Positions 728 through 33,860 of a stretch of DNA of 54,401 bases are shown piece by piece. Within the stretch, counting starts at the first letter, position 1; each line of letters starts with the position of its first letter. Made by a program: the position numbers and the translations under genes. The notes beneath the pieces were generated by a model. That model saw nothing but the letters and a program-made list of their open reading frames with translations, was not told where the DNA came from and did not search any database. This DNA is from Bdellovibrionales bacterium (lineage in GTDB: Bacteria > Bdellovibrionota > Bdellovibrionia > Bdellovibrionales > JAGQZY01): assembly GCA_043764415.1 (NCBI GenBank), contig JAYUKO010000155.1:1-54401 (forward strand), read 5' to 3'.

Positions 728-1684
728 TTAAAAACTGACCACGAGTTGAGTAGTCATCATGCCGTTTTTATATACAGGCATCACCGACCACGAATAGGAG
801 TCGTCCGACGACTCCTGGGTTTTTTCTTTTTTGCCAAGCTGAGAGGCGGTTTTTCCGCAAACGTACCCTAAGGCAATGCCTAGCGGATAATCACTGGCCC
901 AGTGGACTCCATTATTGACCATTTGCCATCCTAAAAGCGTAACCCAAGTGACCTCGAGCGGCCGCAGCCAGTACTCATATTCTGGGTAATTATCAATAAG
1001 CACAGTAAAGGTCATGGTGGCAGTCATAACGTGGCCACTTGGCATAGCATCGTAACTTGGAGTGTTGTTTGCGTATTCAGAAATCGAAGGGAATGGTCGC
1101 CAAGCACCTTGCTCTTGAGTTTTTACATAGGGACTTTCGCGCCCGGTCGCTCTTTTTAGTATTTGGCTAAAGACTGTCGACACGGTCATCCCATGCACGA
1201 TTTGCAATCCCGTATTGTAGGCGCGATTGTTTTCGGAAAAATATCCGTAACCGATCATCGATCCTGCGATTGTGAAGTGTGTGATCCCATCGCCCAGAAA
1301 ATACATGGCTGAACCTGCGTCTGTGGGAAATCGCACTGGCCAAGGACCAATCTCAAACAATGCGTGGGTATTGTCGCCATTGCCAATACCCCACTTTCTG
1401 CCGTTTTTTTGCGTGTCCGCGTAAATATCTTCGTCATACTCGTAGAGCAAGGCCGTCGAACCGATAATCAATCCCCAATAGGGCAAACTCTCTTTGCTAA
1501 AACCCATTTGCAGCGATTTCCAACCGGTGGCAGGCAATTCGGTGATGACCGAAAAAAGCTCAATCTTTTCTGGGTTCTCTCCGACTACAGCTTCTTCTTC
1601 AACTTCTTCATCTGCGCCGTCGTCAGCAAATCCTGAAATCGCAAAGCTAGTGGTTAATAGAATTAAAAAAATGGCTTTTATCAT
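728..1684 (-). CDS. secreted/periplasmic PAP2-like phosphatase
   Basis: 318 aa. Signal peptide MIKAIFLILLTTSFAISGFA. PAP2-type motifs KRATGRESP, MPSGHVMT and HWASDYPLG. Its ATG lies 1 nt past the stop of the upstream eptA-like gene. Confidence 0.65.
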   Translation of the reverse strand: MIKAIFLILLTTSFAISGFADDGADEEVEEEAVVGENPEKIELFSVITELPATGWKSLQMGFSKESLPYWGLIIGSTALLYEYDEDIYADTQKNGRKWGIGNGDNTHALFEIGPWPVRFPTDAGSAMYFLGDGITHFTIAGSMIGYGYFSENNRAYNTGLQIVHGMTVSTVFSQILKRATGRESPYVKTQEQGAWRPFPSISEYANNTPSYDAMPSGHVMTATMTFTVLIDNYPEYEYWLRPLEVTWVTLLGWQMVNNGVHWASDYPLGIALGYVCGKTASQLGKKEKTQESSDDSYSWSVMPVYKNGMMTTQLVVSF

Positions 1685-1685
1685 C

Positions 1686-3356
1686 CTAATTCACCGAATT
1701 TGTTTCGCAAGCATGATTATCCAGACTGAACAAATCCAAGGTTTTGTTGTACTCATGGGTTGAGATCGAAAGTAAACCAAGGACCGTAGAAAAAATGTAA
1801 TCGTGATTAAATTTGCATTTCTTCAGATGTTCAAAAGTAGAACTCATATGGGTTGTGCTCCTCAGCTCCGGAGACAGCCAAAAAAGCAGCGGAATTTCTT
1901 TCTGTTCTTTGGGCGCGATAAAGTATGGCAAAGAGTGCAAATAGACCCCGTTCTCCCCGAGGGACTCTCCATGATCCGAAACATACGCTAAAGCCGTATC
2001 TCTGTCTTGATGCAAAGTTTTTAAGTATTCAATGGTCTTTGCGATAAAATGATCTGTGTACAGAATTGTGTTATCATAGGAATTAATTATTTCGTTTTTT
2101 GCACATCGACTTAAATCGCTGGTCTGACAGGAAGGCTGAAACTTGTTAAATGTTTCTGGCACTCGGAGGTGATACGAAGGTCCATGACTTCCTAGAGTAT
2201 GTAACACCACAAGCTGATTTTCATTTTTTTTCACATCGACGATCGACTTGAGTGCTTCCAATAAAACTTCGTCATAGCACGAATTTTGGTTGCACAGCTT
2301 TGCTTGCTTAAACGCTGTGAGATCTATTTGCTGAATGCGGTTGCACACACCCTGGCATCCTGTGTTGTTGTCGATCCATGCAACTTGATAACCTGCAGAT
2401 TTAACCACATCCAATAAATTCCCGCGAGCGTCGGCCGAGTCCATATTAAAATTCGACTGACCCAAATTTGAAAAAATGCAGGGAACAGATGTCGCGGTCG
2501 CCGTGCCACAGGAAACAACTTTAGGAAAATTAATAATATCTAGCTTTTTGAGGAGCGGAGTTGTTTCGTTGGTCTTGTAACCATTTATCGAAAAATGATC
2601 GGAGCGAGCTGTCTCGCCCAAGATTAGGACGACCAATCGACCTTTTTTTGCACTGAACTTGGCATCCTGGCCGATGGGTATAAAGGTGTGATGTTTTGGA
2701 AAGGCTCTGCCTTTCCAGTATTTGCTAATTTGGTACACGGGCCCCACGGGATTTACCAGATGTCTGACCTGGCGATTATTTCTAAGGAAAGAAGCATAGT
2801 CTTTATAAAAAAATACCGAAATCACTCCCACTCCTAAAAAACAAAGCAAAACCACTTTTCCTGTAACTTGCAGTCTTCGAAGGGGTCGTTGGGATTGCAG
2901 ATTCACAAACAAATTTAATAGCAAAAAAACAAGGGTCCATAAAACCGACCAAAAGAGAAGGTCGCGATTAAAAAATTGCGAGGATTCGGCAAACGTGGTT
3001 TCAAAGAAGCTTTTAAAAATCGTATCATCCGCCACAATTCCATACCTTGTGGAAAAGTAATTTGCGTAGGCCGAAACGATAAACAGACAAAAAGCCCCAG
3101 AACGAAGAATATTGAGAAGGTAAAACGGCAACAAACAAATAGCGGAAAGTACACCCACGATAAAGACATTAGACAAAACAAAAAAGATGCCCTGTATACT
3201 GGGCATCTGATCCAAATTGAAAATAATTGAGAATAATTTTTGATTGAAGAAAAGACAGATGATCAGCGCATTTAGGAGAATAAAGGTCGCAGGCTCGAGG
3301 TTAATGCGCTGTAGCTTGGAGCTGCCAGATGAAGAAACAGATGCCGGAGTTGTCAT
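1686..3356 (-). CDS. eptA: phosphoethanolamine--lipid A transferase (EptA/MCR family)
   Basis: 556 aa. Hydrophobic N-terminal membrane domain, then a sulfatase-fold domain with the family nucleophile motif LGETARSDHFSINGY, plus HTLGSHGPSY and SDHGESLGENG. Confidence 0.85.
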   Translation of the reverse strand: MTTPASVSSSGSSKLQRINLEPATFILLNALIICLFFNQKLFSIIFNLDQMPSIQGIFFVLSNVFIVGVLSAICLLPFYLLNILRSGAFCLFIVSAYANYFSTRYGIVADDTIFKSFFETTFAESSQFFNRDLLFWSVLWTLVFLLLNLFVNLQSQRPLRRLQVTGKVVLLCFLGVGVISVFFYKDYASFLRNNRQVRHLVNPVGPVYQISKYWKGRAFPKHHTFIPIGQDAKFSAKKGRLVVLILGETARSDHFSINGYKTNETTPLLKKLDIINFPKVVSCGTATATSVPCIFSNLGQSNFNMDSADARGNLLDVVKSAGYQVAWIDNNTGCQGVCNRIQQIDLTAFKQAKLCNQNSCYDEVLLEALKSIVDVKKNENQLVVLHTLGSHGPSYHLRVPETFNKFQPSCQTSDLSRCAKNEIINSYDNTILYTDHFIAKTIEYLKTLHQDRDTALAYVSDHGESLGENGVYLHSLPYFIAPKEQKEIPLLFWLSPELRSTTHMSSTFEHLKKCKFNHDYIFSTVLGLLSISTHEYNKTLDLFSLDNHACETNSVN

Positions 3357-3426
3357 ACGAAAAGGTTAACAGGTGACCCTTGCGCCAGTATTGCGTGCGC
3401 ATTACAAATTAGTAATCATTCTTTTT

Positions 3427-3456
3427 TTGAATCTACCCTCGTAACTATGCTAGAAT
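3427..3456 (+). promoter_or_regulatory. candidate sigma70-type promoter (TTGAAT-N18-TAGAAT) for the response-regulator operon
   Basis: TTGAAT at 3427-3432 and TAGAAT at 3451-3456. Only 6 nt (gcaggc) separate the -10 box from the ATG at 3463, and there is no Shine-Dalgarno sequence. Confidence 0.35.
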
Positions 3457-3462
3457 GCAGGC

Positions 3463-4149
3463 ATGAATATTATCATCGTCGAGGATGACCACAAAATTTC
3501 GCAGTTTGTAACCAATGGGTTAAAACAAGAAGGCCATCAAGTGGACACTGCTTTTGACGGGCGCACTGGTCTCGACCTTTTACGACAAAAACAATACGAT
3601 CTTCTCATTCTCGACCTGATGCTGCCGTTGCTTGATGGATTGTCGGTTTTAAAAATTTTAAAGCAAGAAAACATTTCTTTACCCGTCTTAATTTTGAGTG
3701 CCAAGCAATCCGTAGACGACAAGGTCGAGGGTTTGAACATGGGTGCCGACGACTACCTGGTGAAACCATTTTCTTTTTCGGAACTCAATGCCCGGGTGAA
3801 TGCCCTCTCTCGACGAAAAATTGAAGTGGTGAAGGAATCGCAATATCTCAATCTCGGCGATTTGATTTTAGACCGCTATAGCCGAAAAGTGAGCGGGGCT
3901 GGCAAAACCATCGAGCTTCAATCGAAAGAGTTTTCCTTGCTCGAGCTTTTTTTAAAAAACAAAGATCGGGTTTTATCTAAAAATATTATCCTCGACAGAA
4001 TCTGGAATATTGATTTTGACCCACAAACCAACGTGGTGGATGTGTTGGTCTGTCGTTTAAGAAACAAGCTTGAACGGGCCACCAGCAAGAGGTATATAAC
4101 CACTATACGCGGCATGGGATACGTTTTAAATAATGAAGAATCGAATTAA
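3463..4149 (+). CDS. OmpR/PhoB-family response regulator (PmrA/BasR-like by context)
   Basis: 228 aa. Receiver motifs IIIVEDD, LLILDLMLP (phospho-Asp) and LVKPF. C-terminal winged-helix region ending RGMGYVL. Confidence 0.9.
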   Translation: MNIIIVEDDHKISQFVTNGLKQEGHQVDTAFDGRTGLDLLRQKQYDLLILDLMLPLLDGLSVLKILKQENISLPVLILSAKQSVDDKVEGLNMGADDYLVKPFSFSELNARVNALSRRKIEVVKESQYLNLGDLILDRYSRKVSGAGKTIELQSKEFSLLELFLKNKDRVLSKNIILDRIWNIDFDPQTNVVDVLVCRLRNKLERATSKRYITTIRGMGYVLNNEESN

Positions 4150-5515
4150 AAGAACATTAAGTCAGGCCTTGTCCATCAATTTGATACTGACGCTGCTTGG
4201 AAGTCATCTGCTCATCACCGGATCTCTTTTTTTCTTGTTAAAATTTGAATTGGCGAAACGCGACAAAAATGTCGCGATCATTCGTTCCCATGAAGTGTGT
4301 GACGTTATCGAGCTCCATGGCATCGACTACCTCAAAACAAAAGATGCTGCAATTCACTTAGAGGATTTCAACCGATTGCTTATTGTTGTCACCGATGCTT
4401 TAGGAAATAAAATCTTTGAAAAAATGCCGGTGGATTTGAAAAATTTTAGCCAGGAAGAGATCGCAACAGTCCTCAAAGAGTCGTTAGACAACTTAGGCGC
4501 GCACACTGTAAATCCAAAACTACCTTTAGAAGAAACCATCGAGATCTTTTCGCAAAATGTGCTTTCTTACCGAGTGGCTGTGGGTTTTGATACAGACTCC
4601 TCGGAAGATTTTGCCAATCTGTATTTTAAATCGGCCATCTATCTGGTTTTAATAACATCACTTTTAAGTGCGCTGTACGTGTATTTTTTTACGATTCGAA
4701 AACTAAAGCCTATCAATCAGCTTATTGAAACAGTTCAACAAATCCAGTTGGGTAATCTCACACCAATTCCCATGGATCTCGACTCAAAATACGAGCTGTA
4801 CGAACTCACAAGATTATTTAACGAAATGATTCTCCACATCCGAAAGCTCATTGCCTCGCTGCAAGGCTCCATCGACTCCATCGCCCACGACTTGCGAACT
4901 CCCCTCACCCATATTTCGCTCAAACTAGAATCGTTAATCAATTCCGACCAGCAGATCAGTAAAGAGACCTTCGGTGACCTGCTCGAAGAAACTAACGAAA
5001 TCACCAAGCTCGTCAACACGCTTCTTGAAATTACCGAAGCGGATTCAAAAAGTTTAACTCTTAAAAAAGAAGCCTTCCCGCTTCGCCCGCTTTTGCAGGA
5101 ATGTATCGATCTTTACGAGTACGTTTTAGAAGACAAAAAATCAAAGATTGATCTTTATTGCGAACCTGAGATTACGCTCAAAGCCGACAGAAACCGCATC
5201 AAGAGAGTTTTTGCCAACCTCATCGACAACGCCATCAAATTCTGCGGAGACAGCCCTACAATCTCCATTCGCTGTGCACAAATAGACTCCGCAATTTTAA
5301 TCACCATCGAAGATAACGGCGTGGGAATGTCTACAGACGATATTAATAAAATTTGGCAGCGTCTGTACCGCGGCGATCAAAGTCGAACAACCAAAGGGAT
5401 GGGTTTAGGACTGAGTTTTGTAAAATCCATTCTCGACGCCCACGGCTGGACCATCACTGTGGAAAGCGAAATCAATCAAGGCTCAAAATTTAAAATCGAG
5501 GCAACAACAACTTAA
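4133..5515 (+). CDS. sensor histidine kinase (PmrB/BasS-like by context)
   Basis: 460 aa. Two hydrophobic segments flank a periplasmic loop of about 130 aa. H-box IAHDLRTPLT, N-box NLIDNAIKF, G1 EDNGVGM, G2 GMGLGLS. Overlaps the regulator gene by 17 nt. Confidence 0.9.
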   Translation: MKNRIKRTLSQALSINLILTLLGSHLLITGSLFFLLKFELAKRDKNVAIIRSHEVCDVIELHGIDYLKTKDAAIHLEDFNRLLIVVTDALGNKIFEKMPVDLKNFSQEEIATVLKESLDNLGAHTVNPKLPLEETIEIFSQNVLSYRVAVGFDTDSSEDFANLYFKSAIYLVLITSLLSALYVYFFTIRKLKPINQLIETVQQIQLGNLTPIPMDLDSKYELYELTRLFNEMILHIRKLIASLQGSIDSIAHDLRTPLTHISLKLESLINSDQQISKETFGDLLEETNEITKLVNTLLEITEADSKSLTLKKEAFPLRPLLQECIDLYEYVLEDKKSKIDLYCEPEITLKADRNRIKRVFANLIDNAIKFCGDSPTISIRCAQIDSAILITIEDNGVGMSTDDINKIWQRLYRGDQSRTTKGMGLGLSFVKSILDAHGWTITVESEINQGSKFKIEATTT

Positions 5516-5540: not shown

Positions 5541-6998
5541 TTAAGGCCCTTTAATAAGGATCAAACCACTACCCCACCCGGTACTCGTGGAATGTGTTCC
5601 TGTAAAATTTCCGGTGGCACCGGCTGTGGCTTGCACTTTGTCCATAGTTCTTGTTTCCCACCCTGCGTAATACTCTCTTTGTGTAAAGCCTGTTATCAAA
5701 CCTGGAGTTCCAAAACCTGTTCCCAGTGCATATATAACTGAATTGCTCAAAGAGGTTCCGCCCAAATAAGTGATCGTGGTGCCACTTCCAGTGTTTGCTG
5801 TCGCAACAGTGACTGGGTTCGTTATGTTGACTCCGCGGTAGATTGTAAAATTGGAGTAACTGTACGCTGCCCTGGTGTCTGAGGTTGAAAAAGAAAAATC
5901 AAAGTACGAAGCAGCGACGTCGGCACTGATTGCAAGTTTTGTAAAAATTCGATTCCCAAAAGTGCTAATATTAAACGAAACCTGTTCGGTCCAGCCTGTG
6001 GGTGGCGTGTACACTCCCGTATTTTGTACGGAGAGATAGACCACCATCAGATCGTTGATGGTCAGCTGCGAAGGTTTATTGAGTCGCATGTAGGTGGAAT
6101 TCATTGTATAGGAGCTCGCTGTGACCACATGTGTAGGAGTTGGGGCTGTACACGTAATACTAAATCGGCTGCTAAGTATTTTACAATTATGGGCCACCTC
6201 TGTTGGATTGAGTGCCACGTTATAAATGCGAACAATGCCATAAGCTCCAGCTAAATAGAACTGCGTTCCGTCCCAAGAGCCAATATGCACATTCCCAGTG
6301 GTATTTCCCATTCCTGTGTAAGTGCCCGTAGTGCTCGTCGCGCCTGCCATCAAAATTCCATTGTTATAAATACGAATTCCGTTAGGACTTTCTGATCCAT
6401 CATAAGTCACGATCACATGGTTCCATGCTCCTGTCGAAAGCGATGCAGTCGTTGCAAACCTGATTCGATTGGTACTCCAATTTGTAGTTATCAAATCAAC
6501 AGTGATGGTTTCGGTGCCCGACAGCCAAACGACAAACTCGCCTGCGTTTGCAGCGCCCATCTTGCTGATTAAAGTTCGATTGCTTGCCGAATCTGTGACA
6601 TTGACCCACATTTCTAAAGTGAACGGACGGTCGTTGCCGCTGCCATCTGTAAATGAAAGATTATTATGATCGCTCACTGTGATAGTGTCGTTAGTGGAAT
6701 CTTTACTAATGCGATTTGGAGAGTCTAACCAGCCCGTTGTTGTGCAGGTGTCGAAATTTGCGAGAGTTGCATTATAAAGGCCTTTCTGATCATACCATGT
6801 CAGGTTGCTGGCGCAGCCGGTGCCCGCAGTATAAGCTGCTGTGGTTGAACTGTTCGCTTTGAGTGCATCAAAGTTTAAAACTAAATCAGACAGTATAGGG
6901 CCGCTGGCTTTGCGCGTGCCGCCTCCCAACCGAGCTTCCGCTGGCGTAATTAACAATATCACTAACACAAATAGTGTATAGCTTAGTTTTCTCGCCAT
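5541..6998 (-). CDS. secreted LamG/concanavalin-A-like lectin domain protein with an unassigned C-terminal half of about 200 aa
   Basis: I start at the internal ATG (complement of 6996-6998), giving MARKLSYTLFVLVILLITPAEA as the signal peptide. LamG_3-type core: RPFTLEMWVNV...FVVWLSG...WNHVIVTYDGS...IRIYNNG...IVRIYN. Overlaps the 3' end of the giant gene by 16 nt. Confidence 0.7.
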   Translation of the reverse strand: MARKLSYTLFVLVILLITPAEARLGGGTRKASGPILSDLVLNFDALKANSSTTAAYTAGTGCASNLTWYDQKGLYNATLANFDTCTTTGWLDSPNRISKDSTNDTITVSDHNNLSFTDGSGNDRPFTLEMWVNVTDSASNRTLISKMGAANAGEFVVWLSGTETITVDLITTNWSTNRIRFATTASLSTGAWNHVIVTYDGSESPNGIRIYNNGILMAGATSTTGTYTGMGNTTGNVHIGSWDGTQFYLAGAYGIVRIYNVALNPTEVAHNCKILSSRFSITCTAPTPTHVVTASSYTMNSTYMRLNKPSQLTINDLMVVYLSVQNTGVYTPPTGWTEQVSFNISTFGNRIFTKLAISADVAASYFDFSFSTSDTRAAYSYSNFTIYRGVNITNPVTVATANTGSGTTITYLGGTSLSNSVIYALGTGFGTPGLITGFTQREYYAGWETRTMDKVQATAGATGNFTGTHSTSTGWGSGLILIKGP

Positions 6999-9900
6999 AC
7001 CATGGATGCATACCATGTTGTTTCTCCACCGATAATTAAAAACTGATAAATTGTTGTCTCGCCAACACCAGCTGCCGGAGCTGCTGCTGTCCCTGTGTCC
7101 CACTTGATTGTATTTCCGTTACCGGCCCACGCTAAGGTGCGCGAACCCGTAGCGTCCTGTACAACTCTCACTGTTAAAGTGAACGCCTGATCTGTCGCTA
7201 GTGTACCGATCGTAGGGAGTGTTAAAGTGGTATTCCCGTTGAGTGTAATTCTGCGCACGTTGCGGCTTAAATCCGGGATCGTGTAGGTCGTGCTCGAGTT
7301 CGTGGCCGTGGCTGCGCCCTCGTCAGAGGCCAGAACTCTTGCTGTTCCTGCCACATCCAATGCAACGGCTGGGGTGATGGAGCCGATACCAACATTGCCG
7401 GCGAAGTAGTTGGCGCCACCAGCCGAATAGAGCGCGTAATTCAGTGTTGATCCTGCCGTTTGACTGTCGATATAGACGCCGTAGTTGTTGGCAATGGCGC
7501 CGGTGCTTGTGTCGGTTGCGGCGCGGACTCTGACTCCGTAGTTGTTAGTGATGCTCCCTGTTCCGTCGACACCGCTAACTACGTCTAAAATACTCACGTT
7601 GGTGGCAGTTTCCGCACTACCTTGAAAGATAAATTCACCGACTTTTGCGGCCGAGAGATTGGCGCCACCCGCTGCTCCAGTGTGATCCACGCGTGCGCGG
7701 GTCGCCGTCATCGTACCAGTCTGGTTTCCAGAACGATTCGAAATTACATAACTCTCTTGCCCAATAAAATTGGCACTTCCAGCCGCAACTCCATTAACAA
7801 AAGCGTAATTCGATTGATTAATTACTGTGCCGGTCGTTTCGGAATAGGGATTTGTCATGAATTCAAATTTTGCAGGGTTAAACGATGCGCCGCCAAATTC
7901 AATATCTCCGTTATTTTTAATTTCTATCCGTGTTGAATTGTTGGTTTCGAACAACAGACCATAGTTGTCATTGGTCCCTAAGGTTGCATCAGCAGTAAAG
8001 GAATTCCCGGCGTTCACGAAGCCAGTGGTCCCGGTTAATGCCGTCACCCAAGATAAAACACCACTGCCATTCGTTTGTAGCACTTGTCCCGAACTTCCAG
8101 CCGTCGTTGGAAGTGTGAGCGCGTAGCTTGTAGTGATGGCATCGGGAGCGCGGATTGTGGCCGTGTCGGCACCACCGGCGGCGAGTTCGCGTAGGATCAG
8201 CTGACCGGTTTGTCCTGTCCCTGTTCCGCTTGGTCGCGAAGTGACTGCGCCAGCCACGTCTAGCAACGTGCCCGGAATCGTGGTTCCAATTCCAAAGTTC
8301 CCACTTGCCAGTATTCTTGCTTTCTCTGTGAGCGAGCTCGCGGTGCGGGTTTCAAACGCCATAAAATTGTTATTTGCTGACTCCACCTCTGTGTAAATGC
8401 TCGCAGCGTTTACCGTCCCAGCTTTAAATTGAATGGAAGTACCCGAACCGACCCCTGAGGACGAATTTTTTACGGTGACCACCGGAGATATGCCCGCCGA
8501 ATTGCCTTCGACCCATAGGCCATATTGATTCGTATTAAAGCCACCAATACCAACTCCACCAGAGGCTACGTAAAGAGCGTTCGCATCGGTAAACGTGGTG
8601 TTAGCGCCAGCTGTTGGTTTGTCCGCAATGTAGACTGTTGCCGCCTTGGTATATGTTGTGGCTCCGGATGCGGCTAACGTGGGCGTGGCAAACGCATTGA
8701 CGTAGTTAGCAGCAACGGTGCCGGAGCTTGTGGTGTCCGTATAAGTTGCGGCATCTTGGCGAATACCGATTCCGTTTGCAGCCCAGGCTGCAGCCGAGCG
8801 ATTTGACGATTGATGAAGAACAGCCGCTGGCGCTGAAGTGCCAATACCCACATTTCCGCTCTGATCGATTACGAATGGACTGGTGTCACTAGCGACGTCA
8901 TTCACACGAAATGAATCTCCCGTGCCCGTATTTGTAATAGATAAAAAATTTGTTCCTGAAGCTGCGATATCGGTAGATGCATCCAATGACATGGTGTCTG
9001 AGAATTTATCAAAGTTTAAACTATCGTCGGCAATCGATGCCGCTCCAGTGGATGTCCAACTTAAGATGCCAGCCCCGTCAGTAGTGAGAACTTGGTTCGC
9101 AGCCCCCGCCGTGCCTGGAAGAGTGAGTGCATAACTTGTAGTTATAGCATCTGGCGCCCGAATCGCTACAGTGTCGGTACCACCGACTGCGAGCTCGCGC
9201 ATGATCAACTGACCTGTTTGGCCTGTCCCTGTTCCGTTTGGACGTGACGTGATGGCTCCGTTCACATCAAGCAATGTCCCTGGGACCGTGGTTCCAATTC
9301 CTAAGTTCCCTGCAGAGTCGATGCGCAAACGTTCACTTGTGGTATTGTCGAGCGTTGTCGAAATCGAAAAATAGCTATCGCGCGCCGTCGTGTCGTTGGA
9401 TTGGGCACCTTCCCAACCCCAACTGAATTGCGATGCGGATACTCGTGAACCATCTGTAAAGCCTTCCAGTTGAAATGATACCTTACCGCCAAATCCTGCG
9501 CCCGGTGCCGTAGCGTCCCCGCGAAGTCTGTAAAAATTAACGATATTATCTGTACTGTTTGTTGAGCCAATATCTTCAAAGGTAGAATCATAAAATGAGT
9601 TAGAGGTTGTAATCGAATAGGCCGATATCGTGCCTGTCACTGCCATCGTATTGTTGTTGTTATCAATAATGCGAAGGCGCTCGGTTCCGCCCGTACTTGC
9701 AGCGAGAATATCTGCCGAGGGACTATACCAACCCGTGTTCGTATCACCCGAAAAGGAGTAAGTGGGAGCTCCAACGGACCCAAGACTTCCAAGTAGTGGA
9801 AAGGCTGGCGTTGTCGACGAAGTTGTCCAACTTAAAATACCTGCGCCGTCAGTTGTTAGAACTTGATTGGCAGCTCCAGCGGTCCCTGGAAGTGTGAGCG

Positions 9901-12900
9901 CGTAACTTGTCGTGATCGCATCCGGCGCCCGAATCGCTACAGTGTCGGTACCACCGACTGCGAGCTCGCGCATGATCAACTGACCTGTTTGGCCTGTCCC
10001 TGTTCCGTTTGGACGCGATGTAATTGCGCCAGCCGCATCGAGGATGGTACCTGGTACTGTCGTACCGATTCCAACATTTCCAACAGAATCAATTCGCACC
10101 TTTTCGGTGGGCGTTCCAGCAGTTCGAGTTGTAAAGGTCAATGCAGCATCCGTCGTTGCGGCTGATTCCCAGGCTGCGGCAACGTAGGCCATGTTTGTGG
10201 TGCCATTTCCTTGCAGCGAAATACGGGGTCCTCGGCCACTGGCTGCCGTCGCTGTATTCACAACAGTGAGAGTTGTCAGCTGCCCATTGGTAGTTCCAGA
10301 AACTTCCAGCAATGAGCCGGGCGTGGTGGTTCCGATACCAACCTGGCCGGAAGCATCAAAGGTCATGCGCTCAACACCATTTGTTACCATATGGAAGAGA
10401 TTTGCTGAAGAGCGATAGATACCCGTATCAACGTCACCCTGAAATGTATATCCTGGAACACTGACCGTTCCACTTGCCGCGTAAAATTTGGAGTTACTTG
10501 AAATAACTGTGGTGTTTACATTGTCGACAATATTCCCGTCGACTCGAACGTTACCAGTCACATGCAACGGCTGAGCAGGAACCGTTGTACCAATACCCAC
10601 ATTGCCGCTCTGATCAATAACAAATGGACTGGTGTCACTGGCGACGTCATTCACACGGAATGAATCTCCCGTGCCTGCATTTGTAATCGATAAAAAATTT
10701 GTACCTGAAGCTGCGATATCGGTAGATGCATCCAATGACATGGTGTCTGAGAATTTATCAAAGTTTAAACTGTCATCAGCAATCGATGCCGCTCCACTGG
10801 ATGTCCAACTTAAGATTCCAGCACCGTCGGTTGTGAGAACTTGGTTCGAAGTGCCTGCTGTGCCTGGAAGTGTGAGTGAATAACTTGTGGTTATGGCATC
10901 TGGCGCTCGAATCGCTACGGTGTCGGTACCACCGGCTGCGAGTTCGCGCATAATCAACTGACCTGTTTGACCTGTGCCTGTTCCGTTGGGCCTTGAAGTG
11001 ATAGCACCCGCCACGTCGAGTAATGTGCCTGCACTGCTTGTTCCGATACCAACTCCGCCGTTGGCGCCGATGCGCATGCGCTCTCCACCGCGATAAAACA
11101 TAAGATCATCAGAAGCTACAGGCTGAGCAATGGCCCACGCTTGGCCACCGGTACCGCCGAATAATTCGATACCAACTTCACCACCGGCTTGCGTTGCTCG
11201 CTCGACGCGAGCGTAGGAACTCCCAGACGATAAGATATGCAACTGTCTACCGGCCGCAGTAGTACCAATACCCACTTGACCACTGTTATCAATCACGAAG
11301 GGGCTTGTGTCGCCAGTGGCGTCGTTCACTCGGAAGGAATCACCAGTACCTGAATTCGTGACCGAAAGAACATTTGTGCCGCTGGCTGCGATATCTGTAC
11401 TTGCATCTAAAGTCATGGCATCTGCAAAGTGAGTGAAGTCTAAACTGTCTGCTGCTGGCGCGAGAGAGCTCACCCAACTGAGTATGCCTGTTCCGTCTGT
11501 TGAAAGAACCTGGCCAGAACTTCCTGCTGTAGCAGGTAACGTGAGAGCGTAGCTCGTTGTGATGGCATCCGGTGCACGAATCGTTGCGGTTTCGGCTCCA
11601 CCGGCTGCGAGCTCACGCATGGTCAACTGACCGGTTTCACCAGTGGCCGTTCCATAAGGTCGTGATGTCATGGCTCCAGATACATCTAGTAATGTTCCGG
11701 GAGCTGTTGTTCCTATACCCACACTGCCATTTGAAGAATTAATTGTCAGCCAAGTTGTTGAACCATTCATATTAGAAAAACGAAGATCTTTTTGGCTACC
11801 CGCTGTGTAATCAAGACCTGATTGAAACCAATTTGCCACCGCATTTGTTGTAAAACGCAGACTCCCCTGATTGGCAGCGGATGGTACAAAACGAATTGAC
11901 GAAGATGAACCTGAGTTTGCACCCACTTCAAAGGCGGCACCTGGAGCTGAGGTACCTACCCCCACATTTCCGCTGGCATCAATCACGAATGGAGATGTAT
12001 CTCCGGCCGCATCATTCACGCGGAACGAATCACCAGTTCCTGTATTTGTAATCGAAAGTACATTGGTTCCACTGGCCGCGATGTCTGTGCTTGCGTCTAA
12101 CGTCATGGAATCTGCAAAGTGTGTGAAGTCTAAAGTATCAGCACCTGGAGTTGTTGACGGTGTTGTCCAGCTCAATACTCCCGAGCCATTCGTAGTTAAA
12201 ACTTGGCTGGCGCTGCCGGCCGTATCTGGAAGTGTTAGTACGTAGTTTGTTCCTATGGTGGCTGGAGCTTGAATCGCTGCGTACTCACCTCCTGCACTGT
12301 CCGCGAAGCGGGCTTGATTTTGCGCATTCAATGTTAATGCTCCAGTCATGGAATCGCCAGACTTCGCAACTTTCTCCGTATCCAACTCGTTGATTGCGGT
12401 TTGTGCTGTTGTGGCTGCGAGTGCTCCTGCTGGGGTGTTAGGAATTGTTCCTAAATCTAAATTTGCCTCTGCAACATTAAGGTCAATTTCGTTATTGCCA
12501 GCATCAAGGGCCACACTGATTTTGTTGCTAGCAGCATTGATGTTTCTGAATTCCAGATCAAAAGTAGTTTTTTGTTTAAATACGCCCACGCCACCAGCGC
12601 CTTGATTGCTCGCAGTGTTGGTTTCGCCCACTCCTGCTGGAGTGACCCATGCAAGAACTCCGTTACCATCGGTTTGCAAATACTGACCGCTATTTCCATC
12701 GTCTGGAGGCAACGTGAGAGTGTAATTTGCTGCCAAAGTTGTGAGGGCCTTGAATGCCACGTAGTTTGCGCCGCTACCGTCGGCTTCGGAAAGTCTTAAT
12801 TCTTGCTCGTTATCGATATTCAATGCACCAGTCATCGTGTCGCCGGCTTTTGCTACTTTTTCAGTATCAAGTTCGTTAATCGCGGCCTGCACTTCCGTAG

Positions 12901-15544
12901 CGGAAATTGAACCCGCCGGAGTGTTGTCAATTTGATTAGCATCGTAATCACTGGCTGCCGCTACGACAGCTCCTGATCTTCCAAAAACTGTTGTTACGGG
13001 AGCCGAAGGAATCGCAATCCAACTGAGAACTCCCGCGCCGTTTGTGGAAAGCACTTGGCCGTTAGTTCCTGCGGTATCGGGTAAAGTTAACACATAGTTT
13101 GCTGCAATCGTCGCAGGAGCTTGGATGGCTGCGTACTCGCCGCCTGCACTGTCGGCAAAACGAGCTTGGGCTTGAGTGTTGAGTGTAATACTTGTAGCCG
13201 TACTGGCTCCGCGACCTGTTATAGTCGCTAATGTGTCGGCTTCAGCTGTTAGATAACCGTTATTCGACACCATAGCGTCCACTTCGGTTTCGCTGAGCAC
13301 GAAGTTTGTGCGGGTCATTTTTCTGAGTGCCGTTACGCTTGCATCATAAATCAAAATTTCGTCAGCGCCGGCAACTGCTGTTTCAGCTGTGGTTCCGTTA
13401 ATATTCACTGATAAACTGCGGTCAGCAGACAGGTCGCCACCACCGGTGAGTCCGCTGCCTGCAGCGGTATTGACAGCACGTGTGCTTGCCACTTTTTCGC
13501 TATCCAACTCGTTGATCGCGGCTTGTACATCTGTGGCAGCTATTGTTCCTGCCGCGGTGTTATCGATTTGATTGGCGTCGTAATCACTCGCTGCCGCTAC
13601 GACAGCGCCTGATCTTCCAAACACAGTTGTAACTGGCGCAGATGGAATCGCAATCCAGCTAAGAACGCCCGAACCGTTCGTTGAAAGCACTTGGCCATTT
13701 GTTCCTGCAGTGTCTGGCAACGTGAGAACGTAGTTTGCTCCGATTGTTGTAGGAGCTTGAATCGCCGCGTACTCACCGCCTGCGCTATCTGCAAAGCGCG
13801 CTTGATTTTGCGCAGTAAAAGTTAATGCACCACTCATAGAGTCGCCAACTTTAGCAACTTTGTCGGCATCGAGTTCGTTAATGGCTGCTTGAACATTGGT
13901 CGCGGCGATTGTGCCTGCTGCGGTATTTGGAATCACTGCGGAATCCAAATTGGCTTCGTTGACATTGATGTCCACTTCTTTGTTTGCGGCATCCAAAGCC
14001 ACACTCACTTTGTTGCTTGCGGCATTTAAATTTCTAAATTGCAAATCAACACCCGATTTCGCATCGTAAAATCCAACGCCACCAACACCTTGATTGCTTG
14101 CCGTGTTGGTCTCGCCTACTGCTGCAGGAGATGTCCAACTCAACACTCCGCTACCATTTGTGGTGAGCACTTGGTTTACAGCGCCAGCGCCTGCTGGCAG
14201 TGTAAGAGTGTAATTCGCACCCAATGTGGTAAGCGCTTTGATGGCCACGTAGTTTGCACCACTACCATCGGCTTCGGAAAGTCTTAATTCTTGTTCGTTG
14301 TCGATGTTAAGTGCACCGGTCATTGTGTCGCCGGCTTTTGCTACTTTTTCTGTATCTAATTCGTTGATCGCAGCTTGTACTTCAGTAGCGGAAATGGCAC
14401 CTGCAGGAGTGTTATCAATTTGCACAGCATCGTAATCACTGGCTGCTGCAACAACGGCACCCGTTCTGCCGAACACGCTGTCCACCGGAGACACTGCAAA
14501 TTCAGCCGGTCCATCCCAAAACATCAACTTATTCGTCGTGGTGTTGTACCACACCGTGCCTTCGTGCCCTGCTACTAGCGGAGTCGCAACAAGCGTCGCT
14601 TGCTGAGCCGTGGTATAAACTCCAAAGCGAAATGTTCTTTGCGCAGCTTGAGTCATGTGGCCAATGTCGGTTATGTCGTTTGTTGCCATGTCGATGGTGC
14701 CAGCCATTATACCGCCGGCTAAAGGAAGCTTCGTGGGATCGGCACTTCCTGAACTTAAAGTTTGAACAACTGTGCCATCGTAGTAGCGCAGCACAAAGTC
14801 GTCGCTGTCGTACCAAATTTGTCCCGCAGTGGGCGCTCCAGGATTTGTTGCACGGTTTGGAATTACCGTTCCGTTTGTTGTATTTTGTAAATACAGCGAA
14901 CTGCTACCGGCAAGGAGGCCGCTCAGTGTGGTGTAGCTGGCGCCAAAGAGCGTGTTCACTTTAGCCTGGGTGACATCGGTATTGGTCTGCACGAAATCTG
15001 ATGGCGCCATGCCTTGCAATGTTTCAGCAACCAAAGACTGCGGTACGGAATCAATTTGCATATCAGGCGAAAGCGTACTCGTCACACTCGTGGTGCTCGG
15101 TGTAACTATAAAACGAAAGTATCTTGTGTCGCCCGCTGTCGGAATGTACCCGCAACCTGCACCGCCTGAAGTTTTACCAGCAATCGATGCGTTTTGATTT
15201 TGGAAAATCTGCATCATGGAATTTCCAACGTCGATGGTAGCAGTCGTGCGTTTTAAAGACTCAGCGCCAGACGTGGGCGAGCCCACTCGCACGTTGAAGT
15301 ATCCGTTCGACGACAACGTGCTCACCGTTTGTTCTTCTTCGTACAAAATACAAGTTTTTGCAGGATTTAAAATCTGAATTTTCATCAACACGGAATTGTC
15401 GAGAAGCGGATCTTCGGGAGTGGCGGAATCGTAAAGACGTCCATCCACAGTCATAAACTGCGGAGGTTCAGTTTGTGCGAAGGCCATCGATGTCAAAATC
15501 ACCGACCCAACCACAACCGCTAACACTTTGAATTTTAAGAACAT
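6983..15544 (-). CDS. giant secreted repetitive fibre/adhesin (about 2,853 aa) built from phage-tail-fibre-like modules
   Basis: Single uninterrupted frame. The track starts at GTG 15562. I prefer ATG 15544, which gives MFLKFKVLAVVVGSVILTSMAFA|Q. It contains the tail-fibre hallmarks VFGR(T/S)GAVVAAASDYDA.QIDN, VQAAINELD.EKVAK.GD(T/S)M(T/S)GAL and G.VGIGT..PG.LLDV, plus a non-repeated C-terminal domain. Confidence 0.85.
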   Translation of the reverse strand: MFLKFKVLAVVVGSVILTSMAFAQTEPPQFMTVDGRLYDSATPEDPLLDNSVLMKIQILNPAKTCILYEEEQTVSTLSSNGYFNVRVGSPTSGAESLKRTTATIDVGNSMMQIFQNQNASIAGKTSGGAGCGYIPTAGDTRYFRFIVTPSTTSVTSTLSPDMQIDSVPQSLVAETLQGMAPSDFVQTNTDVTQAKVNTLFGASYTTLSGLLAGSSSLYLQNTTNGTVIPNRATNPGAPTAGQIWYDSDDFVLRYYDGTVVQTLSSGSADPTKLPLAGGIMAGTIDMATNDITDIGHMTQAAQRTFRFGVYTTAQQATLVATPLVAGHEGTVWYNTTTNKLMFWDGPAEFAVSPVDSVFGRTGAVVAAASDYDAVQIDNTPAGAISATEVQAAINELDTEKVAKAGDTMTGALNIDNEQELRLSEADGSGANYVAIKALTTLGANYTLTLPAGAGAVNQVLTTNGSGVLSWTSPAAVGETNTASNQGVGGVGFYDAKSGVDLQFRNLNAASNKVSVALDAANKEVDINVNEANLDSAVIPNTAAGTIAATNVQAAINELDADKVAKVGDSMSGALTFTAQNQARFADSAGGEYAAIQAPTTIGANYVLTLPDTAGTNGQVLSTNGSGVLSWIAIPSAPVTTVFGRSGAVVAAASDYDANQIDNTAAGTIAATDVQAAINELDSEKVASTRAVNTAAGSGLTGGGDLSADRSLSVNINGTTAETAVAGADEILIYDASVTALRKMTRTNFVLSETEVDAMVSNNGYLTAEADTLATITGRGASTATSITLNTQAQARFADSAGGEYAAIQAPATIAANYVLTLPDTAGTNGQVLSTNGAGVLSWIAIPSAPVTTVFGRSGAVVAAASDYDANQIDNTPAGSISATEVQAAINELDTEKVAKAGDTMTGALNIDNEQELRLSEADGSGANYVAFKALTTLAANYTLTLPPDDGNSGQYLQTDGNGVLAWVTPAGVGETNTASNQGAGGVGVFKQKTTFDLEFRNINAASNKISVALDAGNNEIDLNVAEANLDLGTIPNTPAGALAATTAQTAINELDTEKVAKSGDSMTGALTLNAQNQARFADSAGGEYAAIQAPATIGTNYVLTLPDTAGSASQVLTTNGSGVLSWTTPSTTPGADTLDFTHFADSMTLDASTDIAASGTNVLSITNTGTGDSFRVNDAAGDTSPFVIDASGNVGVGTSAPGAAFEVGANSGSSSSIRFVPSAANQGSLRFTTNAVANWFQSGLDYTAGSQKDLRFSNMNGSTTWLTINSSNGSVGIGTTAPGTLLDVSGAMTSRPYGTATGETGQLTMRELAAGGAETATIRAPDAITTSYALTLPATAGSSGQVLSTDGTGILSWVSSLAPAADSLDFTHFADAMTLDASTDIAASGTNVLSVTNSGTGDSFRVNDATGDTSPFVIDNSGQVGIGTTAAGRQLHILSSGSSYARVERATQAGGEVGIELFGGTGGQAWAIAQPVASDDLMFYRGGERMRIGANGGVGIGTSSAGTLLDVAGAITSRPNGTGTGQTGQLIMRELAAGGTDTVAIRAPDAITTSYSLTLPGTAGTSNQVLTTDGAGILSWTSSGAASIADDSLNFDKFSDTMSLDASTDIAASGTNFLSITNAGTGDSFRVNDVASDTSPFVIDQSGNVGIGTTVPAQPLHVTGNVRVDGNIVDNVNTTVISSNSKFYAASGTVSVPGYTFQGDVDTGIYRSSANLFHMVTNGVERMTFDASGQVGIGTTTPGSLLEVSGTTNGQLTTLTVVNTATAASGRGPRISLQGNGTTNMAYVAAAWESAATTDAALTFTTRTAGTPTEKVRIDSVGNVGIGTTVPGTILDAAGAITSRPNGTGTGQTGQLIMRELAVGGTDTVAIRAPDAITTSYALTLPGTAGAANQVLTTDGAGILSWTTSSTTPAFPLLGSLGSVGAPTYSFSGDTNTGWYSPSADILAASTGGTERLRIIDNNNNTMAVTGTISAYSITTSNSFYDSTFEDIGSTNSTDNIVNFYRLRGDATAPGAGFGGKVSFQLEGFTDGSRVSASQFSWGWEGAQSNDTTARDSYFSISTTLDNTTSERLRIDSAGNLGIGTTVPGTLLDVNGAITSRPNGTGTGQTGQLIMRELAVGGTDTVAIRAPDAITTSYALTLPGTAGAANQVLTTDGAGILSWTSTGAASIADDSLNFDKFSDTMSLDASTDIAASGTNFLSITNTGTGDSFRVNDVASDTSPFVIDQSGNVGIGTSAPAAVLHQSSNRSAAAWAANGIGIRQDAATYTDTTSSGTVAANYVNAFATPTLAASGATTYTKAATVYIADKPTAGANTTFTDANALYVASGGVGIGGFNTNQYGLWVEGNSAGISPVVTVKNSSSGVGSGTSIQFKAGTVNAASIYTEVESANNNFMAFETRTASSLTEKARILASGNFGIGTTIPGTLLDVAGAVTSRPSGTGTGQTGQLILRELAAGGADTATIRAPDAITTSYALTLPTTAGSSGQVLQTNGSGVLSWVTALTGTTGFVNAGNSFTADATLGTNDNYGLLFETNNSTRIEIKNNGDIEFGGASFNPAKFEFMTNPYSETTGTVINQSNYAFVNGVAAGSANFIGQESYVISNRSGNQTGTMTATRARVDHTGAAGGANLSAAKVGEFIFQGSAETATNVSILDVVSGVDGTGSITNNYGVRVRAATDTSTGAIANNYGVYIDSQTAGSTLNYALYSAGGANYFAGNVGIGSITPAVALDVAGTARVLASDEGAATATNSSTTYTIPDLSRNVRRITLNGNTTLTLPTIGTLATDQAFTLTVRVVQDATGSRTLAWAGNGNTIKWDTGTAAAPAAGVGETTIYQFLIIGGETTWYASMVWREN
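8045..11728 (-). repeat. five dispersed copies of an approximately 88-aa module, plus larger near-identical DNA duplications, inside the fibre gene
   Basis: Module GIGT..PGTLLDV.GA.TSRP.GTGTGQTGQL.(M/L)RELA.GG.DT..IRAPDAITTSY.LTLP.TAG...QVL.T.G.G.LSW occurs at about 8045-8302, 9055-9310, 9826-10080, 10804-11060 and 11471-11727. There is a 92-bp perfect identity at 9153-9244 = 9924-10015. About 250 bp at 8883-9134 is near-identical to 10632-10883 (offset 1749 bp). Confidence 0.85.
12165..14482 (-). repeat. A-B-A' super-repeat (about 290 + 206 + 290 aa) of tail-fibre-like modules inside the fibre gene
   Basis: Units starting VFGR(T/S)GAVVAAASDYDA recur three times. The first and third units are collinear (..NIDNEQELRLSEADGSGANYVA.KALTTL..NTASNQG.GGVG..). 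The DNA offset is 1488 bp, seen in the antisense ORFs ending at 12799 and 14287. Confidence 0.8.
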
Positions 15545-15635
15545 TAAAAGACGTAGCACCACGATAAACTTATCGGTTTTAAATGCGAAAAATTAAGGGA
15601 TTAGACAAAAGTTGGGCATATTGTATGGGTATATT

Positions 15636-16986: not shown

Positions 16987-17078
16987 TCTTTTCCCTCGAC
17001 CCCCCTCCATCAGCACTCTCAATCCACAAGGGCGTGGTACAGAAACTGTAATAGGTAGCTGTGGGGAGAGAGGTGCCG

Positions 17079-18560
17079 ATGAAAGTACACAACATCAAAT
17101 TATGGATAATCGCTATTCCGTTACTTTTGGTAACAAACCCATCTGTGGCTTTGGATTCCTATGTTTACTTTGGAAACACTTTTCAAAAAAATCTCTCCTG
17201 CCAGCGCCTCGCCGTTCAGTTTTCTCCCTACTATATCCTTAACAACGATCTCAGTAATACCAACAACTATCTCCGACGCGGTAGTTTTGTGGACTTTAAA
17301 AAAGATAAAATCATTCGCTCGTGGAATTTAGTTACGGAAAGTAAATTGAGCGTCGCCATCACTGACAATTTTTTAGACACCGCAGAAAAATGGAAAATCA
17401 AAGTTCTTACCACTCAAATAGATATTCCGCAGGTTTCTTTAATCAATAAAACTCTTGAAACACAAAAAACCGCTGACGGAAGATTCACCGTCCATCGCTG
17501 TTGCACCGGCAACTCCTGCGAAATCCTTCCCGTCTATAAAGTGTTGGATGGGCAAAAACAAATCGCCGAAATCTCGTTTCATCCAAAAAAATCAAACTTC
17601 TTAAAAAGTTACTCTCTTGCAAAGGGACAACAATCTCTTGTCGAACCGCGAATGTTGGCGCCTCGTGCGACTCCGGCCCACACGTCATCACTCGTTGCTG
17701 CCTCGGTGAGTGTGGTACCTGCCACGGCCGGCGACGAAGACGACCATGAATCCTACAACGACTCCACCACTTCGCAAATTGCGCAAAATATTGTCTGCAC
17801 CCGCTCCGATCCCCTTCGCATTTACGACGACTCCATGCAAACAGTGATCTACAACATTCAAAGATTTCAAGCCATTCGCATTTTTCAAACCTGGGATGGC
17901 GACCGCGAGGAACGACAATCTGGAAGAACCACGTACATAAAGGTGCTAGCTCACAATGCCCGCGGCCAAGAATTCGTGGGTTGGGCCGCCGCCACCTACA
18001 TCAAACGCCCCGATGATTGCCCAGCATTCGGTTTAGTGGGAAGCCCCAGCGGAGAAACCATCATCGAAGGTTCCACCATCGTTGTTGATAACACCTCTGG
18101 TGACTTCCGCTTTCCCACAGAAAATAAACCATCAGCCGAATACACTCGCGGCAATGGAGGACGATATTTCGGAGCCAGCCGTTCGGGCCGCAAACATGCC
18201 GCCTGCGATCTCTTGCGCCCCAACGGTGAAAAAGTCTTTGCTGTCTCTGGAGGAACTGTTCTTCAACGCTATCGCTTTTACGAAGGGACAGATGCCATCG
18301 AAGTAAAACACGACAGTGGCCATGTGATGCGCTACGGAGAGGTTTCCACAAGAACCGTTGGCCATTCTGGAAACGGCGCGCGTGTCGTTAAAGGACAGCA
18401 CCTTGGCTACATATCAAACCTTGGAATGCTGCATTTCGAAATGTATTCGGGCTCAGGCTCTGGCCCCCTCACCGTCCGAGGGCGTGATGAGTACTCTCGC
18501 CGCTCGGACCTTATCGATCCAACGAATTTTTTAAAACAATGGGAAGAATTAACTTTTTAA
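17079..18560 (+). CDS. secreted M23 (LytM-type) peptidase-domain protein with an SH3-like region
   Basis: ATG 17079 is preceded by gagagagg. Signal peptide MKVHNIKLWIIAIPLLLVTNPSVALD. C-terminal M23 motifs GRKHAACDL (HxxxD), VFAVSGGTV, IEVKHDSGHVMRYGEV, GQHLGYISNLGMLHFEMY. Confidence 0.7.
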   Translation: MKVHNIKLWIIAIPLLLVTNPSVALDSYVYFGNTFQKNLSCQRLAVQFSPYYILNNDLSNTNNYLRRGSFVDFKKDKIIRSWNLVTESKLSVAITDNFLDTAEKWKIKVLTTQIDIPQVSLINKTLETQKTADGRFTVHRCCTGNSCEILPVYKVLDGQKQIAEISFHPKKSNFLKSYSLAKGQQSLVEPRMLAPRATPAHTSSLVAASVSVVPATAGDEDDHESYNDSTTSQIAQNIVCTRSDPLRIYDDSMQTVIYNIQRFQAIRIFQTWDGDREERQSGRTTYIKVLAHNARGQEFVGWAAATYIKRPDDCPAFGLVGSPSGETIIEGSTIVVDNTSGDFRFPTENKPSAEYTRGNGGRYFGASRSGRKHAACDLLRPNGEKVFAVSGGTVLQRYRFYEGTDAIEVKHDSGHVMRYGEVSTRTVGHSGNGARVVKGQHLGYISNLGMLHFEMYSGSGSGPLTVRGRDEYSRRSDLIDPTNFLKQWEELTF

Positions 18561-19314: not shown

Positions 19315-19651
19315 GACGAAATTTGCTGCGTCATTGATGATGAATAATTAAGCAGATTGTTTTTGCTAACAAAAAGTCTACCTACAAAAAAATTAGCGTA
19401 GCTTTTGGAAATTTTTCTAAGCATAAAATTCCTTTACGATTTTGGAACAACTAATTTTTACTGGTTTTATCGTCTAAATACGCAAATGCTCTGCGACATT
19501 TCAGAATATTTTGAATTTCAAAAAATTTATGATGCGTACCTTCAATTACAATCGAGTGTATAAATTTTTTCTTGTCGATGATGCCACTTTGACACTTTTT
19601 TTGATCTCAAGCACCACCCTACCAGAAACAAAAAGGTAAAAAGGGGTTTTT

Positions 19652-22462: not shown

Positions 22463-22465
22463 AGC

Positions 22466-28692: not shown

Positions 28693-29217
28693 ATGTCCAA
28701 AGCATGGAAATTACTTGCAACAAAAACCGGCGAAAAAGTTAAAGTGGATGCCGAAGATTACGAAGAATTACTCAACCGCAGCTGGCGAGTGATTTATCGT
28801 GGCAAAGAAAAAAAGCCGCTGGTTGTAACAAGTATTCGCACGGGTGATTCCTCACGGACCATGTCGTTGGGCCAATACTTGATGAAGCCTAAAAAAGGAA
28901 AAATGGCCTACCCCCGTCGCTGGCAAGCCGGGCTGGACTATCGAAAAGAAAATATCGTCGTTTGCAGCATGAAGGAACGCCAGCGCATGCTTCCGAAGCG
29001 CGCCGAAAAAACGTCTTCAAAATTTCGCGGAGTTTCGTACATTCGAGCTAAAAAAATCTGGCGAGCTCGCATCGAGAAAAACAGCAAGGCCTTCTTTTTG
29101 GGAGATTACGCCACCGAAGAGGCCGCCGCCAGAGCTTACAACAAAGCCGCTCGCGATCTATTTGGCGACTTGGCCTATCAAAATATCGTCGATCGCATTA
29201 AAGACCGACGCAATTAA
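28693..29217 (+). CDS. AP2/ERF-type DNA-binding domain protein on a degenerate HNH-like scaffold
   Basis: 174 aa. RBS aggag. AP2 domain: SKFRGVSYIRAKKIWRARIEKNSKAFFLGDYATEEAAARAYNKAARDLFG. The N-terminal 110 aa resemble the HNH_3 layout (VDAEDYEEL..W, LDYRKENIVVCS) but contain no histidine. Confidence 0.75.
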   Translation: MSKAWKLLATKTGEKVKVDAEDYEELLNRSWRVIYRGKEKKPLVVTSIRTGDSSRTMSLGQYLMKPKKGKMAYPRRWQAGLDYRKENIVVCSMKERQRMLPKRAEKTSSKFRGVSYIRAKKIWRARIEKNSKAFFLGDYATEEAAARAYNKAARDLFGDLAYQNIVDRIKDRRN

Positions 29218-33659: not shown

Positions 33660-33860
33660 CAATTCGACCGAAAGGGCACTTCCCGTAAAACTATGCCCTG
33701 GTTTTTGTAGTTTATGATTTTTACACAAAAACCATAGAAGTTTTATACTTTGCGTTAAATTAAAACAAATTCACTTCTTAGTCAGGTATGTATCCCCTTA
33801 TTCACATTAAACACTGCCAGTTTTTTTTAAAATGAATGATTGGTGGAAAGGACTTTATAC

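Follow-up and report, generated by a model that had tools for sequence, protein, structure and literature searches.

The window analysed here is the whole of contig JAYUKO010000155.1 (54,401 nt, positions 1 to 54,401; assembly GCA_043764415.1) of a Bdellovibrionales bacterium, and this 54-kb contig holds one copy of a fibre gene, encoded on the minus strand. Its product is probably a giant non-S74 (NS74) mosaic adhesive trimer (MAT), a Sec-exported and surface-held trimeric fibre that has been lengthened by duplication and whose tip would contact a ligand on another cell. The initial annotation had proposed a very long MAT-type fibre or an analogous adhesin, and the former is borne out by two profile searches. 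The N-terminal end matches the NCBIfam model Bdello_MAT_N (NF053851) at 95.2 bits against a cutoff of 60 (E value 3.4e-27, aa 22–194), and a profile of the repeated beta-helix unit matches MAT crystal structures only, so that membership of the family is supported at the level of sequence. The NS74 class was assigned because Pfam scans of the whole protein and its pieces found no S74 domain.

For MAT members, with which predatory Bdellovibrio grip their prey, surface display, trimeric fibres and glycan binding have been demonstrated (Caulton et al. 2024, PMC10769870). The described fibres are homotrimers whose tips bind prey epitopes, and a Bdellovibrio-like genome encodes a multigene repertoire of them. 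In that study the family is recognised by a capping-loop motif, V-G-G/N-pi-x-x-P-x-x-x-L, in the beta-helix domains, which the shortest members, Bd2734 and Bd2740, lack, and its mosaic logic joins a conserved N-terminal end to a diversified, exchangeable C-terminal tip of S74 or non-S74 type. The basic nature of the fibre is already explained by this existing MAT work.

The gene occupies a single uninterrupted minus-strand frame that runs from a GTG at 15562 (2,859 aa) or an ATG at 15544 (2,853 aa) to a stop codon at 6983–6985. The 2,853-aa form is 100% identical to an entry in a public protein collection (P0001). From the translation, a Sec-type signal peptide (MFLKFKVLAVVVGSVILTSMAFA; 15476–15544, minus strand, aa 7–29) is predicted to be cleaved before QTEPP. 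An alignment of seven relatives revealed invariant columns beginning exactly at A-QTEPP, preceded by variable hydrophobic leaders. The 8.6-kb open reading frame (ORF) with a signal peptide that had been described at first is thus present, with the strand corrected to minus, and every motif quoted in that description was found in the translation: GAVVAAASDYDA.QIDN in three copies, VQAAINELD.EKVAK.GD.M.GAL in two (AINELD in five), and G.VGIGT..PG.LLDV in one exact copy, with 11 copies of the looser G.[VF]G[IV]G. Ala, Thr, Gly and Ser make up 47% of the fibre protein, which contains only two cysteines. Promoter and terminator scans around the gene returned hits at chance level.

The signal peptide is followed by the MAT N-terminal beta-rich domain (14963–15475, minus strand, aa 30–200), the presumed cell-proximal anchor, identified by the NF053851 match. 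An AlphaFold2 model of this domain is beta-rich, with nine strands and a predicted local distance difference test score (pLDDT) of 80.6. It has no match among PDB folds at an E value ≤0.001, and a single-sequence PDB search with the N-terminal region returned nothing; Caulton et al. 2024 (PMC10769870) likewise describe the MAT N domain as having no PDB homologue. Next comes a conserved neck (14492–14962, minus strand, aa ~201–357), delimited with phmmer by its high identity to paralogues; in 16 relatives it is complete and follows immediately on the N domain. Four Bdellovibrionales metagenome-assembled genomes (MAGs) carry four to five loci each with this N module, which spans 354 aa and at these 19 loci is 65–93% identical to that of the fibre. 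A search of proteins with the N-domain profile yielded only 17 short fragments (P0253–P0269), and many database entries are such short "partial" N- or C-terminal pieces; repetitive fibre genes are systematically fragmented in short-read assemblies, and their number and length are therefore under-counted.

The larger part of the fibre body consists of seven MAT-type beta-helix units with VGIGT capping loops and interleaved Y.LTLP...LSW motifs (8039–12142, minus strand, aa 1141–2508), delimited by profile A3 and counted with a hidden Markov model (HMM) of the unit. The unit envelopes are aa 1150–1311, 1382–1534, 1539–1680, 1700–1860, 1930–2117, 2124–2283 and 2291–2453. Searched against the whole PDB, profile A3 found MAT crystal structures exclusively, with E values from 6e-30 to 2e-8: 8OND (Bd2133, 6.2e-30), 8OML (Bd1334, 3.6e-17), 8OJN (Bd3182, 2.1e-14), 8OL4 (Bd2439, 1.5e-9) and also 8ON4. 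The same region matches the PHROG tail-fibre families 9942 and 18345 (E value ~6e-14).

Upstream of the beta-helix units, the first third of the body is made of phage-fibre motifs. This "A" module array of ~780 aa (12143–14491, minus strand, aa 358–1140) was delimited by motifs, self-BLAST, DNA repeats and a profile, and carries GAVVAAASDYDA.QIDN, AINELD..KVAK.GD.M.GAL and Y.LTLP....Q.L.T.G.G.LSW. Profile A4, built on the A module, matches solved phage fibres, namely 8JOV_1 (E value 1.1e-6) and 8I4M_e (5.8e-4), the latter being the gp28 fibre of cyanophage P-SCSP1u. A single-sequence PDB search with the A-module region gave one non-significant match, FtbO (9J1L), and local Pfam scans, run on the full protein and on five pieces of it, did not rise above sub-threshold noise.

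Both arrays have grown by duplication, as had been suggested for the length of the protein. The modules are repeated at the protein level, detected by self-BLAST with fragment queries after the whole protein had returned only its identity match, and at the DNA level, where the internal direct repeats are 66–91% identical. The A array is a tandem duplication of a super-unit of ~496 aa, with DNA repeats D4–D6 73–82% identical at a spacing of 1,488 nt; in the beta-helix array, repeats D1–D3 reach 91% identity at a spacing of 1,749 nt, corresponding to a super-unit of ~583 aa. The youngest copy pair lies in the beta-helix array, with 91% nucleotide identity and up to 95–97% amino acid identity. 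The longest exact internal repeat is 92 nt.

After the last beta-helix unit, a single-copy, beta-rich pre-tip segment (7331–8038, minus strand, aa 2509–2744) carries the last capping motif, GNVGIGS, at its end. Fragment self-BLAST found no internal repeat partner for this segment and Pfam gave no match; its homologues sit internally in other giant fibres, for example P0026 and P0052. The protein then ends in an all-beta tip domain of 115 aa (6986–7330, minus strand, aa 2745–2859, ending in WYASMVWREN) that is assigned to PF26209 (Phage_phiTE_241_C). The assignment comes from precomputed Pfam annotation, which gives PF26209.2 for P0001, the identical protein, and for every close relative of the tip; an hmmscan against a local Pfam copy, which presumably lacks the model or holds a different one, gave no PF26209 match. 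Among 1.84 billion cluster representatives, searched exhaustively with HMMER, 591 proteins carry the tip domain at an E value ≤0.001; they are ~100 to 3,783 aa long, and in almost all of them it forms the extreme C-terminus. In the AlphaFold2 model the tip has eight strands and a pLDDT of ~90 over most of the domain, and is predicted to be a small, soluble beta-sandwich. Foldseek with this model found 259 viral models at an E value ≤0.001, many of which bear a tail-fibre or fibre annotation, and the best PDB fold match was the capsid spike of phage Pa223 (9NY6_C, E value 3e-4). The initial annotation had called the C-terminal domain unique, which holds within the protein; the domain itself is not novel, being a member of a widespread, reused C-terminal family of phage-fibre type (591 clusters).

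Comparison among relatives, which had been suggested for the tip sequences, revealed swapped tips on N modules that are 65–93% identical. At least five tip types occur among 16 close relatives: PF26209, two other small beta-sandwich types, S74 and DUF1566. The relative P0009 has a tip 83% identical to that of the window, and its best fibre-body segments are only ~47% identical. Over the N-terminal part and much of the body, by comparison, P0004 (2,952 aa, from an independent ENA assembly) is collinear with aa 31–1750 (1,720 aa) at 75% identity. The fibre is longer than any MAT in the published-length rows of PMC10769870, which give 626–1,492 aa for B. bacteriovorus HD100 and up to 1,915 aa for other predators, yet it is typical of unstudied metagenomic relatives: 99 homologues of the full-length query were found, and 48 of them (1,579–4,283 aa) begin with the same N domain. 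The unannotated giant MAT-N proteins of Bdellovibrionales MAGs, such as P0004, P0009 (3,783 aa) and P0002 (3,243 aa), share this N module and the same module vocabulary, but differ in module number and order and mostly in tip, which is of the S74, DUF1566 or one of the two small beta-sandwich types. The literature searched contained no experimental study of these giant proteins; a CASP16 paper that matched the literature query concerns another Bdellovibrio protein and was set aside.

Among characterised proteins, the fibre most closely resembles Bd2133 and Bd1334 (8OND and 8OML), with which it shares the signal peptide, the conserved beta-rich N domain, the beta-helix unit with VGIGT-type capping loops, a small non-S74 beta-sandwich tip and the swapping of tips on a conserved N-terminal part. 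It differs from them in length (2,853 aa against 1,031 for Bd2133 and 1,151 for Bd1334), in the number of beta-helix units (seven, against two and one-and-a-half, respectively, in the solved tip fragments), and in having the 780-aa A-module array and an overlapping downstream gene for a LamG protein. A PF26209 tip is not among the types in the MAT tip-table rows examined (PMC10769870). By description, the fibre also resembles Halobacteriovorax marinus BMS_2153, at 1,915 aa the longest MAT among the Table S3 entries, as a long MAT from a Bdellovibrio-like organism; BMS_2153 is ~940 aa shorter and ends in an S74 chaperone-protease domain that the fibre lacks, and its length indicates that the MAT family tolerates large increases. 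With phage fibres (8I4M, 8JOV, 9NY6 and BFVD models such as the Roseobacter phage CRP-4 fibre) the protein shares the KxxKAGDTMTGxL and YxLTxP...LSW motifs and the tip fold, but these fibres have neither a signal peptide nor a MAT N domain and are encoded in structural modules. Several homologues bear the JGI name of trimeric autotransporter adhesin, a class marked by a C-terminal YadA-type membrane-anchor beta-barrel with head and coiled-coil stalk repeats. This identity was rejected for the present protein, as Pfam scans of its whole length and of its pieces detected no YadA anchor, head or stalk family and its C-terminus is a soluble beta-sandwich tip.

The fibre gene is native and chromosomal and is not part of a prophage, in agreement with the initial annotation, which had placed it outside any prophage and had named flanking phage structural genes as evidence to the contrary. 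A scan of the 30 larger neighbouring ORFs across the window gave no match to capsid, tail, terminase or integrase families, the GC content at third codon positions (GC3) equals that of the neighbours, and the flanks are syntenic with contigs of "Bdellovibrionales bacterium" MAGs at 72–89% nucleotide identity, again without phage genes. The overall GC content of the fibre gene is raised (0.506, against ~0.44 in the flanks), which had suggested recent horizontal acquisition; this was rejected, since the excess lies at second codon positions (GC2, 0.546), where it follows from the Ala/Gly/Thr/Ser-rich composition, and GC3 (0.443) is native.

Immediately downstream, and absent from the initial annotation, lies a gene for a 485-aa protein (5541–6998, minus strand) with a signal-like N-terminal segment and a match to Laminin_G_3 (PF13385, E value 1e-20), a domain of the ConA-like lectin class. 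Its product is described here as a secreted, LamG lectin-like protein. The ATG (6998–6996) falls inside the last fibre codons, giving an overlap of 16 nt, and the two genes are probably co-transcribed. Of the neighbours named at first, the MFS transporter stands, upstream and divergent; the two-component system is not adjacent, as this overlapping gene intervenes and the histidine kinase lies beyond it, convergent. A 60%-identical LamG homologue occupies the same overlapping position after the 83%-identical tip of P0009 (locus L020), and in an independent read set (L023) an 85%-identical LamG gene follows a 97%-identical tip.

The pairing of the tip with a downstream gene was examined at ten distinct PF26209-tip loci, comprising the window, L020–L024, L025/L026 (which encode the same protein, P0103) and L027–L029. 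In eight of the ten, a same-strand gene begins no more than 94 nt after the tip, with an overlap between the two genes in five of these eight. At the two remaining loci the tip is followed by a gene for another giant MAT (L022) or by a convergent gene (L028). The partner genes are located at 17319–18197 in L020, 11849–13675 in L021, 1784–2089 in L023, 880–1785 in L024, 797–1555 in L025, 441–1313 in L027, 467–1078 in L029 and 5541–6998 (minus strand) in the window. Since L023 is orthologous to the window, the eight loci represent seven independent partners, which include a LamG lectin, a different LamG-like protein, a glycine-rich protein and others. BLAST found no similarity among the partner bodies, except between the LamG orthologues in the window, L020 and L023. 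In six of the seven independent partners, a basic motif (TRKAS, RMRKG, RMRRT, HMRKN, RARKA) lies just past the signal-like hydrophobic N-terminus, an observation of limited weight because the motif was defined after looking.

Some phage fibres have a separately encoded tip partner, as in T4 gp37 with gp38 and in the Mu-type Tfa chaperones. The likeness to these pairs lies in the position of the gene directly after the fibre gene, from which its product could assemble or decorate the tip; unlike gp38 and Tfa, the partner here is LamG lectin-like and has a signal-like N-terminus, and no similarity to either protein was detected. The tip-partner pairing may provide a lead towards a two-gene cassette rather than a result. 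It is conceivable, though doubtful, that the PF26209 tip is a docking platform for an exchangeable, separately encoded partner and not the final recognition element. If so, tip and partner would form a two-gene cassette that determines target specificity and is a bacterial counterpart of phage fibre and adhesin or chaperone pairs such as T4 gp37 with gp38.

In the mechanism that we consider likely for the giant NS74 MAT, the protein would be exported through Sec and anchored at the cell surface by its conserved N-terminal beta-rich domain. By analogy with characterised family members, three chains would intertwine into a very long fibre, with the phage-fibre-type module array followed by the seven beta-helix units, and at its far end the PF26209 beta-sandwich would contact another cell, such as prey, through a ligand that is most likely a surface glycan. 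The extra length stems from intragenic duplication of the two super-units of ~496 and ~583 aa, and the tip and the overlapping LamG gene would behave as an exchangeable cassette grafted onto the conserved N-terminal part, with any contribution of the LamG protein itself being putative. Several points weigh against this mechanism. The organism is known only as a metagenomic contig, and predation by it is presumptive; trimerisation is inferred only from homology to trimeric crystal structures; and any ligand of the tip is hypothetical. No sequence relatives of the tip subfamily were found in INPHARED (tblastn, 50,697 phage records) or in IMG/VR (pattern scan), so that its phage link rests on the Pfam name and the likeness of fold. 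Finally, nothing collinear with the C-terminal 1,100 aa was found in a second assembly, and a short-read misjoin between repeat units is possible there.

The most serious competing explanation is that the protein uses the MAT scaffold as a general-purpose adhesin or spacer fibre of the cell surface, perhaps for attachment to particles, in biofilms, or to a eukaryotic or bacterial host, and not for recognising prey. The source is an uncultured Bdellovibrionales MAG of unknown lifestyle, no predation-specific gene is linked to the locus, homologues are labelled "autotransporter adhesin" in databases, and MAT-like proteins from non-predators appear among the Table S3 entries of PMC10769870. We nevertheless regard this as unlikely, given that the curated Bdello_MAT_N cutoff is clearly exceeded, that the presence of several copies in each genome, with their tips swapped, agrees with the published logic of diverse-prey recognition, and that the tip fold is one found on phage host-recognition fibres.

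An assembly artefact, in which paralogous genes or repeat units were joined in frame from short reads to give part of the 8.6-kb ORF, with an inflated length or a false chimera as the outcome, is considerably less probable. Related MAG contigs very often break inside fibre genes (L002, L003, L006, L007, L008 and L014–L019), the gene is full of 66–91% identical repeats, and collinearity with an independent assembly is limited to aa 31–1750. Over that interval, however, the collinearity with P0004 argues against a gross artefact, and the frame is uninterrupted over the full 8.6 kb. The longest exact repeat is shorter than the k of 141 given in the contig names of related assemblies (the assembler of the window is unknown), dozens of independent assemblies give proteins of 2,000–4,300 aa with the same build, and the tip-LamG junction recurs in the independent read set of L023 (97% tip and 85% LamG identity). 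Least probable by far is that the protein serves as the tail fibre of a prophage, a tailocin or a contractile injection system, with the remaining genes of that system situated beyond the window. The PHROG tail-fibre matches, the phage-fibre matches of the A modules and the tip fold would suit such an origin, but the protein carries a Sec signal peptide and a Bdello_MAT_N domain, the two flanks, of ~7 kb and 39 kb, contain only cellular genes, and the native GC3 and the phage-free syntenic flanks effectively refute it within the contig. The giant NS74 MAT, displayed at the surface and directed at a ligand on another cell, is the explanation that we favour.

The genes surrounding the fibre encode PAP2, EptA, an OmpR-type regulator, a histidine kinase, an MFS transporter, an M23 peptidase, a MoxR/VWA pair, a CCA/poly(A) polymerase-family nucleotidyltransferase, QueG, hydrolases, SppA, ferrochelatase, DapD and others. 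At 728–5515, the PAP2 protein, the EptA-type phosphoethanolamine transferase, the OmpR-family regulator and the HAMP histidine kinase have the look of a PmrAB/EptA-style lipid A modification system; in L001, where the arrangement differs, a distance of ~8 kb separates the PAP2/EptA part from a paralogous fibre gene downstream of it. The region 19316–25624 (ORFs 19652–22462 and 22466–25630, plus strand) encodes a MoxR-type AAA ATPase with a beta-propeller-like C-terminus and a large VWA protein, a pair that forms the signature of a MoxR-vWA-beta-propeller ternary system. This block of ~6.3 kb is missing from the otherwise collinear L002 and L006 and is at least partly present in L008. Domain matches point to three further proteins with possible envelope- or glycan-related functions, namely an M23 peptidase-domain protein two genes from the fibre (17061–18560, plus strand), a 1,129-aa beta-propeller protein (33840–37229, plus strand) and a CBM96 carbohydrate-binding protein (50847–52490, minus strand). 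The sole mobile-element gene seen on the contig encodes an IS200-like Y1 transposase (40642–41235, minus strand), and L020 has a similar Y1_Tnp gene, ~4 kb downstream of its fibre gene for P0009. A 174-aa ORF (28693–29217, plus strand) gives a weak AP2 DNA-binding match (32.1 bits, below the cutoff of 33.3), a domain that is unusual in bacteria beyond homing-endonuclease or phage contexts.

Giant MATs of 1,600–4,300 aa are common in related MAGs, so that MAT fibres in uncultured Bdellovibrionales reach two to four times the lengths given for B. bacteriovorus in the published-length rows (626–1,492 aa), and they owe their construction to the duplication of a small set of phage-derived modules. 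The model of Bd3182 extends over ~550 Å for ~760 mature residues (PMC10769870). If this rise per residue holds, the fibre would be, as a rough estimate, ~0.2 µm long, a sizeable fraction of the cell length, which could change the distance at which the cell senses its target. The recurrent PF26209 tip with its downstream partner offers a concrete starting point for testing how the specificity of the tip is assembled or extended in this family.

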